The notes beneath the pieces were generated by a model, which worked only from the letters and a program-made list of their open reading frames with translations, ran no database searches and was not told where the DNA came from. From Podarcis vaucheri (lineage: Eukaryota), in NCBI GenBank assembly GCA_965113315.1, contig OZ220372.1: a DNA stretch of 64,000 bases, one strand, 5' to 3'. Shown here in pieces: positions 32,611 through 61,037 of this stretch. Position 1 is the first letter of the stretch. Each line of letters begins with the position of its first letter. A program made the position numbers and the translations under genes.

Positions 32611-33946
32611 AATTTATATGTACAAAGAAAAGAAATTCTGAATGTTAGAAGGAAGCTTTCCACTTTGAAAAATCTCTTAAGGCTCTCTTGAATTGTCACT
32701 TATCCAACAGCACAGATGTAACAAGGTTTATTTTAACTGGCAAAATAGCAGAAGTCTGGGGAAATGTTTTGCATTTGGAGCCAACAATTCAGTGTCTGTA
32801 CATCCATGGTGGAAAATTGCTCGATAGAATGAAAGTACTCTAGAGAGAGAATTGTATCTTTTTTCAAACTAATTAACAAAATTAGTTACAAAGTGTTAAT
32901 GAGCCGACAAAAAAACCTTCCCACTGTAGTAAAAGTGAAGTGTTTTGATGTTAACACACTTTCCTCATTTGCATTCTTAAATGCAAGGAACATTGTTTAG
33001 GTAAGCAGTGAAGGTGAGACTGACTAAAACAGAAAATCTGGTGATCCGTAATCGAAATGTCATGCCCAAAGCGGAAGAGGTGGCTCATGTGTGAGTGATG
33101 GAACTTAGAAGTTCTCCAGATAAAATGCATCCAGTATTAAAACAGCCAAAGTTTACTTGAGTTACTTAAGGGATTCATCTCTATTTACAAAGCACAAAGA
33201 CTTTGTAAATAATGTCCAAACCAACCTTAGAGCTATCAGGATCCAGGTAACATTTTTAAGAAGCATCAGTGGAAATATAGATATTCAAGATATGATTAAA
33301 AGTTAAGGACACTGGATTGTAACCATTTCATTTCTACTCAAATTACACCTATGAAAATCTATATCCATTCACTTCAATAGGTTGACTCTGAGTATGACTG
33401 GCATTGAATACAACCATAAGCTCAGATCACTCAAAGACTGAGCAATGACAGTTGGGAGTGGACAGGCCTAGGAGGTAGATATTTGATTAACTGCCCATGA
33501 CTGGGTTGGGAAGATGAACCCTATAATTTTTGTTCATGTATGCTATCACTAGCATGCCATCATTTTGGCCCAGATGGTGAGCTTAACAAGCTGCCAGAAT
33601 CTAGAGCTTTGTGAGTATCACTGTGACTCTCAGAATCAAGGGAAATGAAATTCTGATATGCTGAGAAGCATCTCTAACCTTGTGTCAGCTTGCAGCCTGA
33701 ATGACAGCTGCTGAATCTGCGCTATATAGGCAGGGTGGATGGCAGGACAGAATAGCAGACAAAACCTAATCCTCACAGTTAAACCTTCAGCCTCCTGTGA
33801 CATATGAAGCACTTCTTAGCATACAGGAACAACAGCTATATGGAAGCCTGAGAGCACATTCAAAAACATTATTCTGTTATTCAAGTGGCACTATCTACTG
33901 ATAACAGGCAAGAACATCTGACATGCTGTGTCTGTTGATCTTTCAG

Positions 33947-34171
33947 ATAAACAAGGCAAAGCCTCCTCAGTGGAAAATGACCCTTCTAAATATCTGTGAC
34001 CTCATCAGCAACATAAACAACCAGGAAGAGGATGTGGGTGATGTTGAAGAAGAAGACCTCCTGTCAAGAAGACAGTTTCCCTCTACCCTTGATGGCTCTA
34101 GTTTGGAAGCATTGTTGACGTTGTACCAGCTTCAGAAAGTCTGCCACAGCAGAACCTTTCAGCACTGGGAG
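33947..34171 (+). CDS. NTS: NTS exon 3
   Basis: tttcag|INKAKPPQWKMTLLNICDLISNINNQ...LEALLTLYQLQKVCHSRTFQHWE|gtaagt. 225 nt, phase 0. Confidence 0.96.
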
Positions 34172-34279
34172 GTAAGTCAAATCATGCTGGGAACCCAAGT
34201 TTTGCTTTACTTTGATCATATTACTATGAAAAAAATTTTTTTATTCATACAGTGCACAGATGAAATCATTTGTGTGTTT

Positions 34280-34755
34280 TTTAATGTTAAACAACAACTG
34301 ATGAACTCCTTTTACCGGTCCACAATAGAAAGTGTCATTTCATATTGTATCACAGTGTGGTATGCTGGCCTGACAGCCACAGACAGAAAGTCTTTACAGA
34401 GGGTGGTGAATAAAGCACATGGTATCATGGGCTGTCCCCTGAGTCCGCTAGATGACATTGCAAGGGATTGTTGCCTTAGGAGAGTGAGAAAAATTCTCAG
34501 GGATGACTCACACCCCAGCCATCACCTCTTTAATCTTCTACCCTTGGGCAGGAGATATAGAAGTATAATCAGTCGTACCAACAGGCTAAAAAATAGCTTC
34601 TATCTGTGGACTGTTAGGCTGTTGAACGAAAAATAACATAGTGAAATTGACTAGCGAGGTGGTGTGTTGTTCAATAAGAGATTGAATGTTTTGTGGGGAA
34701 GGCTCGGTTAATTTCATTGTACACAGGCTGTACAATGACAATAAAGGTATTATTA
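34280..34755 (+). mobile_element. Rex1/Babar LINE 3' end (C-terminal ORF, 3' stem-loop and tail)
   Basis: FYRSTIESVISYCITVWY...LQRVVNKA...SHPSHHLFNLLPLGRRYRS...RLKNSFY is a typical Rex/Babar C-terminus. Hairpin TCATTGTACA-caggc-TGTACAATGA is followed by CAATAAAG and (TAT)n. Confidence 0.85.
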
Positions 34756-35812: not shown

Positions 35813-35997
35813 CTCAGCAGTTAAAGTAGTGTTTATTTAGTTTCTAAGTAACTGTGCTTTATGGTTACCTTATTTCAACCTTAAATCTTATTTGTGTGGA
35901 AAATAGATTATGGAAAGTGACTGTGTCTTTCTTGCCACTGTTGTTTCTTGGTTGTGATTTTTTCCTACTTAAAATTCATTGGAATAATACATTTGAA

Positions 35998-41156: not shown

Positions 41157-43811
41157 TATATGTTTGGCTAGCCACTAGATTTTCAGTCCTTTCCCTTATG
41201 GGCTAAAGATTCCTTCCTGATTGGACTCCAGGTCTGATTGGATATGCTTTCAATCAGAACTGGGGTCCAATCAGGAAGGACTGGTTAGCTGGGAGATCAT
41301 AAAAGCCCACGTCAAGGAAAAGTGAATTTCACAAGCTCTAAAATTCTTCTTCAGCTATAATTAAAATTAAAACTGGAGATGAATTCCAGGTTTCCACCCA
41401 CACGTCCCCACTAGCTTTAATTACCTGGAATTCCACCTGGAATTGACTTATTTTGCAAGTAGAAGGAGCCACAATAGAAGATGGAGAACAGAGAGGTGAG
41501 AAGGATTTCCTCTTTCCATCCTATTTGCTCCCTTATTGTGATGGGTTAGGCAAAGTGCATCAGGGTACAAAGCCCAGGAGCTATGGAAGATGCTGTTCTC
41601 CTAAGGATTGCTGCAGTGTGGGACTCCCACTGCATGATAAAATAAATTATGACCCCTTGAGATAAGATAAAATAGGCTAAGTGCAGAGCAAGGTCTCATG
41701 AGAATGAATTTCTTTCCTAACTTCTGAAGATCCCAAGACTTTGGGTCAGAACTGAGTTAGACCATCTATCTCCATCATTGACAACACTGATTGACAACGG
41801 TTCTCCAGCGATCCGAACAAGGATATTCCCAACTCTACCAGGAAATGCCAAGGATGGGAACTTAGGAAACTTCCATATGCTTGGTTCATCTAGCTCAATA
41901 TTGTCTACACTGACTGGCAGAGGCATTTCAGGGTTTCAGGCAGGGTTTTCGCACAGCCCTATCTGGAGGTGCCAGGGATTGATCTTTGGCAAGCAAAGTG
42001 AATACTCTACCACTGAGTTATGGCCCTTTCTCAAACTTTGAAGAACATATCTCCATTTCTAAATGAGCGGAGATGGGAAATGCAACTGATTTGTTTTAGC
42101 CGTGACAAATCATTTTGCAGATAACGGGATTTAATCAACATCTTCCGTGGGCCATTCTGAGGACCAGTATAAGTGACGACACACCAAGCAGTAAAGCTCA
42201 TCTGAACTATTTCCCTACAGAAAGCTATGCTCACTGTGCCCAGGAAAGTCCAATTTGTTCTCTTTTGTTCAGACGTGGTTCAGCTATGCTTGAGTGAGTC
42301 CTGTGAGTCAATGACTAAATTTCACCTTGTAATAAATATTCGTACCCATCAAAACCGTGGGACAGAATGAAAGATGAGCAAAAGAAAACAGCAAAATGTA
42401 TCTAAATAGAGTTTTGTGCACTTCAAAGGCACAGCATAACATCACTGCACATAACTATGAGAACTTTACCCCTCACAGAACTACTTTTCTGAGCACTCTA
42501 CAGGTCCCATGATTCTTTGGAAAATCTGCTTTAAATGTGTTTTAAAGGTATGGTGTGTACACAGCAGTTATGTTCTTATGACATTGTACCTCATATTTTA
42601 GGGAACTCTAATCACTCAGGGCAGCAGTTCTTTGTAGAAATGAATATACTCAGTTTCATAGTGACGTGAATTGAATAACTAAGCATTAAAAAAAAAGCTT
42701 CCACATTGATTACCAATAAAATTAAGTGAATATTCCATTTTGAGATGAAATTTTAGAGGCCAAAACAAAATGATTTATTTGTATTCATGTCATTTTTTTT
42801 ATGTTATAGCATCATCTGGTGGATATTTCTAGGAACAACTATTTAACGAAATAAAACTGTTGTGGCTCCGAGGGGGAGAAGTGGATGCATAAAAACATAA
42901 TAGGACTCCTGCTGGATGAGACCACAAGGCATATCAAGTTCAGCATTCTGTTTTCATAGAGGCCAACCAGATGAAAACTCAATCCTTGCAACCAGAACCT
43001 GAACTGGAAACAGAAAGCACCATTTTGGAGGACTGACTGGTATGACTGGCAGTTCCTGGTATGACAAAAAGACTACCAAAAAACCTCTCTGCCTAAGTCA
43101 ATGCAGATATGTTTATTTATTGCTGTACATGTGCAGTTGATGGTCATCCCCACATTTCTTTTTTGTGCAGTTGTCAGCCTGCCAGGTCTCTTGGGACAGT
43201 TTTTTTCAGTTATGGTGCATCTCACAAATGAATAGGGCATGTAAAGAAGGAAACTACAGTTGACCATAAACTACAGCTCAGTTTGTTTTAGTTTTATTTA
43301 CTACTGTAAGGTAAATAAGATGGACATTACTTAAGTCCACTAATTTTGGTAGGATATCATCAAATAAAATGCCATCTGCTGAACTTCTGGTGTTAACAAT
43401 TTCTGTCAGTACCAATTAAAATCAAAGTAAGTACTCCATTTTGATTGTTTTAATATTGTTTTCTAAATTAATTTATTAGATTTCTTCACCAAAAGCTCCC
43501 AGGGCAGATTGCAACAATATAATATACAATTATAAAAACAGAACAGTTACAATTAGGAAAAAAATCCAGTAAAACTATCCAGCTAGAACAGCACAGCACA
43601 GCTTCAAGAAAAGGGGTGCTTCCACTAAACAAGGGTCAGGGCAAAGAGGTGTAACTTCAGCATATGGTGAAAGCTATACAAAAAAGATGCTAGTCTAACC
43701 CCCATGGGGATGGAACTCCACACGTTAGGAGCTGCCACAAGGAAAGCTTTGACCAGGCCACCATTCCCCACACTTTGAGAATGGTGGAGCTACAATGTGA
43801 GCCCCCTCTGC

Positions 43812-44750
43812 CAGTGGCGTAGCGTGGGGGGTGCCAGGGGTGCCAGCTGCACCGGGCGCAACATTTTGGGGGGCGCGTTTGGCCGGCCCCCCTCAAGGAA
43901 GCGGGAACCTCTCCAAGGCACAGCGCGCTGTTGGTAGAGGAAAAAAGCCGAGCAGCAGCAGCAGCAAAGTCGGGAGGAGGAGGAGGTGGAGCGAGCCTGC
44001 TAAGAATTCCTCGCAGCTGGCCATCCAACCTCCAGCGAAGGAGGGCCCCGCTCCACCTTCCGAGGGAGCCTGCTAGGACCCCCGGCTCCCTGCAGGTGGC
44101 TCACAACCCCCGCTAGCCCGGCCGGGGCTCGGGGAGGATGGGAGCCGCCTGCTGGGCTGGCACAGCTGCGTGTGAAGGCGCGGAGGGAGGCGCTCCCAGG
44201 GCTGCCGGCGGCCTTTCCCCGCACGCGAAGGAGCAAGGGCGGTGGCGGCGGCGAGGCTGCGCAACAGCCGCTGCGTGAGAACGAGCCCTTGCCCAGCCCG
44301 GGGGACGATCCGGAGGCCCTCGCCGAGCGCGTCGCGTGTAGCCAGCCTGCCAGCCTGCCTGCCAGGGTGGAGCAAAGCGGCGGAGTGGGTAGAGGTTGCC
44401 CTTCTTTGCACGCAACCCCCCCCCCCCGCGTCACGCCTTAAATCCACCCTCCCACAAACTAGGAGCGAGCAGCTGAGAGGGAACAGCTGAGAGCCACCAG
44501 CAGCTTTTTCTGAAAATGCCCTTTTAAAAAAAAAATCCTAACATTTATAAACCGCTTGACAGCTACAAAAGCGGTTTGCCAAGAGAATAAAACTGCCAGG
44601 AAGCAGTGGTGTAGCGTGGGGGGGTGCAGGGGGGCCGGCCGCACCGGGCGCAACATCTGGGGGTTAGGGTTAGGGGGCGCAAATCCACGGGTTAGGGGGC
44701 GCAAATTACTTGCCTTGCCCCGGGTGCTGACAAGCCACGCTACGCCACTG
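43812..44750. mobile_element. Non-autonomous composite hAT element with GC-rich cargo
   Basis: Perfect 16-bp TIRs CAGTGGCGTAGCGTGG / CCACGCTACGCCACTG. 8-bp TSD CCCTCTGC at 43804-43811 and 44751-44758. An extra left end begins at 44604. Confidence 0.9.
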
Positions 44751-44903
44751 CCCTCTGCCGATCATAACCCACCAGATGGTCTGTAGACATCTAAGCAGCT
44801 TTGCAGTTATTTGGGAGACCTAAGTTGTTCAGGGTTTTAATCACTAATGTGAGAACTCTGAATTGGGTCTCCTAATGAACTAGCAATGGGTGCAGCTGTT
44901 TTA

Positions 44904-58090: not shown

Positions 58091-59247
58091 TTATTGACTT
58101 GGGCTCTGTGAAGTCCATATGCTAATGCTCCGAATGATCAACCATTCCTTTTGGCTTTTGGTAACAAGTATTCTCATACAGTTAATATCAAAAAGAACTT
58201 TGTGCTCCACATTTGTAATTTCAAAGTTTCCATTTTTAAACTCCCCTAGCCGCAAGAAAGTAGTACATTGCCTCCCTTTTTTGCCACCAACAATTTTTTC
58301 CCCAACTTCCAGAGCCCCATGATGCAAGATATCATTTTGCCGGTCTTCTGTCCCAGTGACAACTTTAATTCTGCTAATTTTAATAGGTTTTTCAAAGACG
58401 ATCATATAGAAATCTCCAGTCGAGGGAGCTTTGCCCCAGAAGTACTCGTCGACACTACTATATGCCTTGCTTGCCTCGTAGTTTTCAAATACATTCATGT
58501 TAGTGTGCAGGTTGGCAGGTGGGTTATCAGGAAGGTCAAATGAATCCTCTTCAAAGTCATCATCTTTCAATTTATTCTCAGCACCCTTGTAGGATGAATA
58601 ATATCCCATATGCTGGAAGAGAGATGGTTTGAAACGTATCACATCCTTTTGAGCCAACAGCCCACGGAAATGTATCAGCAGCCAGTCACAAGGCATCTCC
58701 TGGTAGAACATCAGCAAGAAATGAGCCAGGCGAGGGAGATCATGGGAATGGTACAACTTCCCAATGTAGCCCAACTTTGAAAATTCTAACGTCACCCAGT
58801 ATGTTCCTTCTCGTGAGGTTATGACTTTCTTAACAACAGTCAAGAAGTTTTTTGCACACCGAACATCATCTTCTAGCATCACATAATAATCAGAAAGGTT
58901 AGCACAAAAGTTAAGCAAGAAAGCATAATCTACATTTTGCTTGGAACGAAATTTCACTCGGTCCTCTGGGTCATTATAATTTCTCTTAAGGCCATCCAAT
59001 ACAGGATAGTATTCTTCAGGCGTATGGATCACCATTAATCTCCCAGCAATCACATGATGGGCAAATTTCTGTGAAATATCCTGAACCATCCCATCACACC
59101 AGGATGAATCAAACTCGGCCAGGTGGACCACTACTGCAATTTCCTTCAGCTCTTCATAACTTGACTGCTCAAAGATGGACTTGATTGTCTCCAGCAAATA
59201 ATTCCCCTTTTTCCTTTTGACAGAGGACAGTCCAATAGTAAGATATC
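58091..59247 (-). CDS. MGAT4C: MGAT4C last coding exon (GT54 N-acetylglucosaminyltransferase catalytic and C-terminal domains)
   Basis: ttttcag|GA TAT CTT ACT ATT GGA... = (R)[25 protein letters not shown]...MLEDDV...WTSQSPSQ*. Contains the 368-aa ORF in the track and the EDD motif. Confidence 0.97.
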
Positions 59248-59264
59248 CTGAAAAGGAGAAGCAA

Positions 59265-59316
<52 letters not shown>
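59265..59316. repeat. (AAT)n microsatellite next to the MGAT4C last-exon acceptor
   Basis: Direct reading. Confidence 0.95.
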
Positions 59317-61037
59317 TTTAAAAATAGAGACTACAAATATTGTCAGAACATGGGAACATAAAGAAGGGCCTACTGGATCAGGCTGATAGCCCATCTAGTC
59401 CGGCATTCTGTTTTCAAAGTGGCCCACCAGCTGCCTGTGGGAAACCTACAAGCAGGCTCCAAGCACCACAGCACCCTCTCCTCTTATGGTTTCCAACAGC
59501 TGGTATTCAGAATCATTACTTCCTCCAGCTGTGGAGTCAGAGCATAGCCATCATGACTGGTCTCACCTTTTATCTCTACAAGATAAAAGCAGAGTTGCTG
59601 TTTTATTCAAAATAAGTTACCTGAATCACAAAGGCCATGGGAAATATATGGCCAACAGGCCTTTTGCCTTTCTCCCCTTTTAGATAGCAGATCCCACCCC
59701 AATATCACATCATAAATGGCTTTTGAAACTACCTAGTTTTGTGTGTCTGGTGGGTGGGTGGGAGAGATTTTTTTTTTTACAAAGTAAAAGCTCTCCTGAA
59801 TGCATATAATTGTGAATATTTTTGATTGCTTTAAGGATAATATATATTGGCTAATCTTGATACCTTTTCTCCAGAAAGATGTATTGGGAGCACATAGAGG
59901 CTATTGCATTAAACATCAGTTGTTAACTGCAGGAAGTAGTGTGAGATGTGAACTAAAAAGCCAGGAGGCATGTGTACAAAGATGCTGGCAGGAAAACAAT
60001 ATATTTACAATATTAATGCTATACACTCTGTTTGGGGAATGGGAATTTTAACGTTATGGCTCACAAACTGTTTACAATTCCATCCATTAGGGAATAAATG
60101 GCAAATTAATGTCTCCCCTCCCCCTTTTGTACTTAAAAAGGAAATAAAGCAAGGACTCTGATCCAGTCATACTCATGCATTTTAAATTGTATTGGTGTCA
60201 GTGGGAGAATTAAGCTCTGCTGAAGTCTTCACTGTTTAACTCAATGCTCCTGAAATATTCTGAACCATAGCTAGATAAATAGATTTTAAAAATAGCTTAA
60301 AAAATAGATTTTGGGTTGGTCGGAGAAAATTGATCCATATTCATTTTGTATGGGTATTCAAAGACTAAAAAAACAGGCATTTTCTGAAACAACGTGTGAA
60401 CCAGAACACAGCTATCCTTTGAAATTGTGCTGTTCTGAATTTTGCAATGCAGTTCTCACCCCATGTAGCGTGTACAAAAATGTAAATACAATGGTAAAGT
60501 GTGCATATAGATACATATATTAGTGAAAATAATGTACAAAAACACATCACATTAGGGAAAAAGCACTTTGCAAAAATGTGTATATTATGGAAAAATGCAT
60601 ATAAAATGTGCATAGTAAGAGAAATTCACATCAAACAAATGTTGAATTAATTTCTCATGAGGTGTTTAAAAATAAATAAATCACAAACTGGTGTAGACAT
60701 GTGGAGAACTGACCTAAAGGAAAAATGAGAAACTGAAATTGACATATTTGCTCATCACTAACACCACCTAAGTATCAATTCTATGCCCTTCCTAAAACTG
60801 TGCCACAACTTAGGGGGTTATGAAGCCTCTTCCTTTTCGTGTTCATGCACTCTGCACATATGACATACACATTCTGTGGGAAAGTAAAGTTTATCAATTG
60901 AATACTGAGTTAAAGCTTCTTTCTTCCAACTCTACTAAGCAGCAACATCCAACTTGCAGTTTTTTCTCTGCTTGCTGCAATTAGGTCAGATAAAAATCTT
61001 GCTTTACTTAATGAAATCGAAATGTTCAGATACTTAC

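Follow-up and report, generated by a model that had tools for sequence, protein, structure and literature searches.

How did a short transposon of Podarcis vaucheri come to carry several hundred base pairs of CpG-island-like DNA, and what was that DNA where it came from? Both questions are raised by positions 43812–44750 of the window, the whole 64,000-nt stretch of contig OZ220372.1 that was analysed. These 939 bp are bracketed by the 8-bp TSD CCCTCTGC (43804–43811 and 44751–44758, plus strand) and begin and end with TIRs of 16 nt (43812–43827 and 44735–44750) that are 100% complementary. A second left end lies inside the element at 44604 (71 nt, 80% identity to the outer left end), and 44604–44750 (plus strand) is in itself a full MITE of 147 bp, which belongs to the same hAT family and provides the right end of the composite. 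Free copies of this MITE with their own TSDs were found at C28:76742649–76742795 and 76760731–76760899, and over its last 70 bp it shares 97% identity with the right end of a transposase-bearing element. The outer type of left end (43812–43875, plus strand), consisting of the 16-bp TIR and subterminal sequence, likewise occurs on transposase-bearing copies (C28:28737343 and C41:18461269). Its first 32 nt have 1468 exact matches in the genome searched (G000), and one 28-nt left end of the MITE type has 5166, compared with 0 for a control; the MITE may already bear a name in Repbase or Dfam.

CpG islands are usually defined by a GC content >0.55, a CpG observed/expected ratio >0.65 and a length >500 bp. 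The interior between the two left ends (43875–44603) exceeds all three values, with 729 bp, GC 0.64 and a ratio of 0.70, whereas the 2-kb flanks have GC 0.39–0.40 and a ratio of 0.18. It includes short (AGC)n, (GGA)n and (GCCT)n tracts, and GC-rich open frames are present within the element. An NTS exon (Pfam Pro-NT_NN) lies at 33905–34636, with the last coding exon of the gene ending near 35830, ∼8 kb before the element; on the other side, the last exon of an MGAT4-family gene (58094–59317, minus strand) has its stop ∼13 kb away. Judged from these coding exons, the element sits between the 3′ ends of the two genes. The original prediction, made from the letters of the window, had thus been right about the perfect TIRs and the TSD around 939 bp, the repeated left end that makes 44604–44750 a full MITE, the CpG-rich interior with its (GCA)n, (GGA)n and (GCCT)n tracts in CpG-depleted flanks, and the position between NTS and what it had called MGAT4C.

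Using the interior as a genome query, we found at least eight full-length copies at seven insertion sites (40 of 170 candidates scored). The three ends recur in all eight, each with an 8-bp TSD, and as these TSDs comprise seven different 8-mers, the arrangement is an element and not a chance one. Two copies, L007 and L008, represent a single insertion duplicated within a 3.6-kb unit of a satellite-like array. Pairwise identity among seven copies was 97.6–99.8%. A search for the empty insertion site in relatives, proposed at the outset, had a positive outcome: in three of four public runs (X1, X5 and X7, from organisms A, C and D) contigs bridged the window site without the element, and for run X3 no piece bridging it was listed. 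Judged from these identities and empty sites, the family is young. Contigs over the cargo reached ∼22 times the flank depth in organism A, 32 times in B, 19 times in C and ∼1–2 times in E; depth is not copy number, and these values are only consistent with amplification in organisms A–C and none in E. Organism D (run X7) yielded no contig over the cargo core, which proves nothing because the filter can leave holes. One copy (L007:1423–2417) belongs to a subfamily with a 46-bp duplication in its left part; the duplication, together with a donor-type base, recurs in organisms B and C, so this subfamily may be an older form.

When the genome was searched with the Pfam model of the hAT dimerisation domain (150 of 369 candidates scored), at least two loci beside family members were identified. 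The first, C28:28732418–28737343 (L120:3918–8843), has the same TIRs, the TSD CTACCAGC and DUF4371 and Dimer_Tnp_hAT domains in an ORF that is split into two pieces; the second, on C41 (L121/L122), is interrupted by insertions. Both are broken in this assembly. With its 8-bp TSD, its short TIRs and a hAT transposase with the same TIRs in the genome, the window element is a non-autonomous hAT; from the domain layout of the transposase, the family may resemble the Tip100/Zaphod subgroup.

The interior proved to consist of two pieces. The smaller one, cargo 1 (43876–44003, plus strand), is a CpG-island piece antisense to a GAS2-family gene and accounts for the (GCA)n and (GGA)n tracts. It is common to many sister elements. 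Querying the genome with the longer interior of one such sister returned at least 16 strong matches (40 of 151 candidates scored), 15 of them with the family TIRs and one, L072, without. This TIR-less parent (G000:C38, ∼24,342,870), 92% identical over element positions 65–180, is part of a 1.5-kb CpG island ∼9 kb upstream of the first coding exon that we found for the GAS2-family gene, an exon that encodes a CH domain and matches GAS2 in the PDB (E 4.5e-24). Cargo 1 is taken to be inherited from a longer sister element. SH3BGRL, at first suggested for this parent by a motif, was dropped, as the exon has a CH domain and matches GAS2.

The larger piece, cargo 2 (44001–44602, plus strand), derives from a different locus. 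All nine scored matches to its 519-bp core (at least nine candidates) were accounted for by the eight copies and one TIR-less locus, L009 (G000:C28:76752951–76753534), which aligns with 14 mismatches and three gaps. L009 is a CpG island in the spacer between a CYP1A1-like gene on the minus strand and a CYP1A2-like gene on the plus strand: among large flanking P450 exons, that on the minus strand had CYP1A1 as its best human match (E 4e-103), and that on the plus strand had CYP1A2 (E 8e-97), with CYP1A1 nearly equal. An EDC3-like gene adjoins the pair. The locus examined contained no family TIR, the nearest free MITEs being 7 and 10 kb away, and neither a TIR nor a footprint was detected at the donor in G000. 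The first ∼75 bp of cargo 2 are the truncated 3′ relic of a high-copy LINE, presumably CR1, that belongs to the donor; the 5′ junction cuts this relic, its upstream continuation is found in the donor only, and 11 of 65 repeat hits span the junction point by at least 15 bases on each side. In organism E, contigs run across the two junctions in the donor arrangement, with a depth close to that of the flanks. As there is a single TIR-less match, as the LINE relic continues upstream in it and as organism E has the donor form, the direction of capture is from donor to element. A 21-bp segment present in the copies and in the organism E contigs is missing from the G000 donor.

Some further features of the CYP1A region were noted along the way. 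A TATA-like TTAAATA in the donor was considered as a promoter sign and discarded for want of support. No RNA record covering the donor was listed. In two raw RNA runs of organism E (∼12% read), depth was zero over L009 1561–1800, and it was 1–2 over 1801–2040 in run X23 only, too few reads in either case to judge transcription. The region around G000:C28:76738045 (L034, minus strand) has TATAAA, CCAAT and CACGTG within about 50 bp and is likely the proximal promoter of the CYP1A1-like gene. Also in the spacer is a stretch that resembles an endogenous retrovirus and has long frames of pol- and env-like type (G000:C28:76763000–76771000, L037), and an LTR-retroelement-like stretch lies within the CYP1A2-like gene (L038/L039).

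The comparison of the interior with the rest of the genome thus returned two TIR-less parents, each kilobases from the nearest coding exons found; together with the distinct TSDs of the copies, they bear out the proposal that host CpG-island DNA had been captured and moved as a unit. The proposed patchwork of promoters or 5′UTRs is a patchwork, of two pieces, the larger of which turned out to be the CYP1A spacer island, something that the letters alone could not show. The converse reading had been named in advance as the one to refute capture: an autonomous hAT would have supplied the interior from its 5′ or subterminal part, and elements would have left the TIR-less matches behind as fragments. 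Indeed, both transposase-bearing copies align collinearly in their left part with 43812–44003 (88–92% identity), and this includes all of 43876–44003; that part, however, is itself captured host DNA. Cargo 2 has no match in the transposase-bearing copies, a further locus (L128) joins a 64-bp left end straight to the transposase leader, and both parents continue into host sequence, the one as the 1.5-kb GAS2-family island and the other as the LINE relic across the junction. We therefore regard an autonomous origin of the interior as very improbable. In the transposase-bearing copies, the GAS2-family island is present and an inner right TIR directly precedes the leader; set against the plain join in L128, this indicates that they are composites as well. 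It is possible that the captured island lends the transposase a borrowed promoter. Within the captured CpG-island DNA before the leader, these copies also have an expanded 22-bp repeat with CACGTG.

The likely route is indicated by sister composites. Within one TSD pair, L016:391–1691 brings together a complete smaller element, a MITE and 703 bp of host DNA; this host DNA matches the TIR-less locus L050, beginning at the base next to one TIR and extending as far as the following TIR. A second sister, family C (L043:304–2172; at least eight copies of ∼1.9 kb), has ∼1.4 kb of cargo from L077; of nine long matches three were examined, two of which were elements and the third this parent. L077 retains a MITE flanked on either side by CTCAGCCT, and the 6 kb examined contained no outer left end. 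Taken together, L016 and L077 indicate that inner MITEs are real insertions in the donor, the right ends of which were later used by an upstream left end. Among members of family C, L041 has a further, 370-bp LTR-like insert. Other sisters (L015, L018, L023, L060, L068 and L069) have a 60-bp palindromic repeat, expanding and contracting, inside a nested TA-flanked element that ends in CAGTGGT/CACCACTG and is possibly, by our assumption, Tc1/mariner-like.

Overall, we consider it probable that the window element belongs to a young, multicopy non-autonomous hAT family with two host CpG-island pieces, the larger of which comes from the CYP1A spacer and is likely an AhR-responsive enhancer, and that two neighbouring insertions were probably moved as one. 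An element already bearing the GAS2-family island would have inserted upstream of a cluster of predicted AhR response elements (XREs) in the spacer, and a MITE just downstream of it, in an allele since lost. A deletion at a TAA microhomology would then have removed the right end of the first element, and transposase acting in trans could have mobilized the whole by using its outer left end together with the MITE's right end. The resulting copies would have spread and become, for the most part, silent as enhancers, probably through germ-line methylation. Fusion of neighbours followed by internal deletion is favoured here because the cargo ends at TIRs in the sisters and because a donor retains a TSD-flanked MITE.

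At the 5′ junction of cargo 2, the 3-nt TAA microhomology (44001–44003) fits fusion and template switching alike. At the 3′ side, the cargo stops one base before the inner TIR, and this base is G in the element and A in the donor. Fusion needs one substitution here, whereas a template switch onto a parent ending in AG needs none. By template switching (gap filling or FoSTeST), repair of a break in a parent that already had three ends would have used 600 bp of the CYP1A spacer as a template in trans, then switched back to the parent immediately ahead of the inner MITE, and the donor would never have received an insertion. The donor without TIR or footprint is in line with this, as neither G000 nor the pieces listed for X1 and X8 show a MITE or an outer end there. 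So are the position of the TAA within a longer imperfect match and the non-donor G, which is the last base of the family C and family B interiors, and this mechanism is the one favoured for multicopy animal Pack-TIRs in the available text of PMC8277862. On the other hand, the return point must land within 1–2 bases of the inner TIR, and template switching predicts neither sister junctions exactly at TIRs nor a donor with a TSD-flanked MITE. We hold it to be unlikely and prefer the fusion of neighbouring insertions.

What the larger cargo did in its original place is suggested by its motifs. Six GCGTG cores, predicted AhR response elements, lie within 272 bp of cargo 2 (44168–44436), at 44168, 44273 and 44334 on the plus strand and at 44222–44226, 44409–44413 and 44432–44436 on the minus strand. 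Three of the six extend to the full XRE consensus TNGCGTG (PMC4013641). Only 1.05 cores were expected from dinucleotide shuffles, and six were reached in none of 3000 shuffles of the window copy and in two of 3000 of the donor. The captured piece is the densest 500-bp GCGTG window in 100 kb around the two CYP1A genes. Among 99 CpG-rich control windows, chosen without cargo copies and with TIR cores masked, not one had as many as six cores or two TNGCGTG; repeat copies were included, and the windows are not independent. GCGTG ranked first among the 260 five-mers seen, a rank that would fail a blind 512-word correction, the motif having been chosen after seeing the locus. All six cores are kept in seven of the eight copies. 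Because of these six cores and their being the densest cluster in 100 kb, the donor island is likely a distal AhR (dioxin-response) enhancer, to judge by sequence. As a separate observation, the family TIR itself holds TAGCGTG, a match to the XRE consensus (43821–43826, 44613–44618 and 44736–44742), which gives thousands of MITE copies two predicted XRE sites apiece; this match is probably due to chance.

The setting resembles that in mammals, where EDC3 adjoins the CYP1A pair in the human gene order, as the EDC3-like gene does here. Human CYP1A1 and CYP1A2 share a regulatory region with several XREs (PMC8954692), and, as described for the mammalian region (PMC4013641, PMC8954692), we found a head-to-head CYP1A pair with several GCGTG/TNGCGTG sites in a CpG-rich stretch. 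The likeness is one of motif and gene layout: the mouse cluster is within 1.4 kb of the promoter (PMC4013641), compared with ∼15 kb from the inferred CYP1A1-like TATA box here, where single strong cores lie closer. This distance, the CpG decay in the copies described below and the report that most open-chromatin DREs are unbound by AhR (PMC10682972) speak for another reading, in which the capture is real and cargo 2 is an ordinary GC-rich intergenic patch, with a GCGTG cluster that arose by chance and a family that is regulatory junk with no AhR link; such a patch would be compatible with fusion and with template switching. The density of the six cores in the 100 kb around the CYP1A genes and the 99 CpG-rich controls argue against an ordinary patch, as does the donor, which retains its CpGs and occurs in organism E. 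This leaves it rather unlikely, and an AhR-responsive island remains our preferred reading of the donor.

Relative to the family majority of seven copies, we counted 14 transitions at 146 CpG bases and 8 at 470 other C/G positions, a 5.6-fold excess (p = 7e-5). In the window copy, CpG transitions make up four of the five substitutions; between copy L002 and the donor, they account for 0 of 14 differences. Germ-line methylation is thus probable for the copies and improbable for the donor. The youngest copies, L002 and L004, have lost no CpG, and silencing cannot be judged there. In human cells, methylation of XRE enhancer sites is associated with reduced CYP1A1 expression (PMC5226494), and as every GCGTG core contains a CpG, most copies are likely silent as enhancers. 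The idea of a portable CpG island in the original prediction is weakened by this excess of CpG transitions, which is of the kind expected in methylated DNA. In the most far-reaching reading, the transposon would have taken an intact CYP1A dioxin-response enhancer and would be scattering working copies of it (at seven sites here, perhaps 20–30 and species-specific in relatives) that bring genes under AhR control, with a transposase gene driven by a captured CpG-island promoter; we regard this as quite unlikely.

The Pack-TIR features examined (PMC8277862) are found in this family, namely TIR-less parents (L009 and L072), non-TE host cargo and distinct TSDs at seven sites. The available text of that survey describes four multicopy cases in 100 animal genomes (frog and alligator), for which template switching was proposed; one of them, Pack-hAT-N8_XT, has 291 bp of the CAPSL 5′UTR and three copies. 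Like these, the window family combines hAT ends, a TIR-less parent on another contig, distinct TSDs, GC-rich cargo and microhomology at one breakpoint. Unlike the cases described there, it has at least eight copies in G000, apparent amplification in three other organisms, a two-locus serial capture, a retained inner MITE, sisters that point to the fusion of neighbours, and a cargo that is a distal motif cluster instead of a UTR. In plant Pack-TYPE elements (Pack-CACTA and Pack-hAT), neighbouring insertions and the DNA between them move jointly after loss of the inner TIRs (PMC8903248). The proposed joint movement of neighbours and serial acquisition are shared with that system (PMC8903248); unlike what its available text describes, our case concerns a vertebrate and non-coding cargo, one inner end (the left end of the MITE) is kept, and family C has an intermediate in the form of a donor with a MITE. 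By the Pack-TYPE junction criterion, L016 and family C have their junctions at the TIRs, and the 3′ junction of the window family is one base off.

Multicopy Pack-TIRs are rare in vertebrates, and, in the available text of PMC8277862, their origin was deduced without intermediates. Here one genome offers the parents and an intermediate, along with sister composites and the gene for a matching transposase; this makes the capture route directly testable, and our data suggest that the fused-neighbour model from plants apparently also runs in a vertebrate. The cargo differs, too, from motifs native to a transposon in that it is a whole predicted response-element cluster from a known inducible locus. 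In Alu/SINE elements, AhR sites are part of the retroelement's own sequence; unlike them, a DNA transposon here took a whole host cluster of predicted sites from the CYP1A locus. What the two have in common is a mobile element that spreads AhR sites, Alu/SINE elements being bound by AhR (PMC4889919). A literature search largely confined to main texts outside subscription journals turned up neither this family nor a Pack element with an XRE cluster. The window insertion, filled here and empty in related samples, offers a natural test of enhancer transport and of the speed of shut-off by methylation.

Finally, we scanned the neighbourhoods of the other copies, covering 100 of the 688 open frames of at least 60 aa in 12 flanking 10-kb stretches. 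Pfam-type hits were limited to LINE-type, ANF_receptor and EML, and this shallow scan showed no copy adjoining a promoter. L005 has ANF_receptor exons on either side, from one receptor gene or a cluster of them, and L006 lies 5–7 kb from exons for an EML beta-propeller. A frame in L088:7822–8634 has a weak Pfam match to COX17 (E 2e-7) and is more likely a Cys-rich repeat than a gene.
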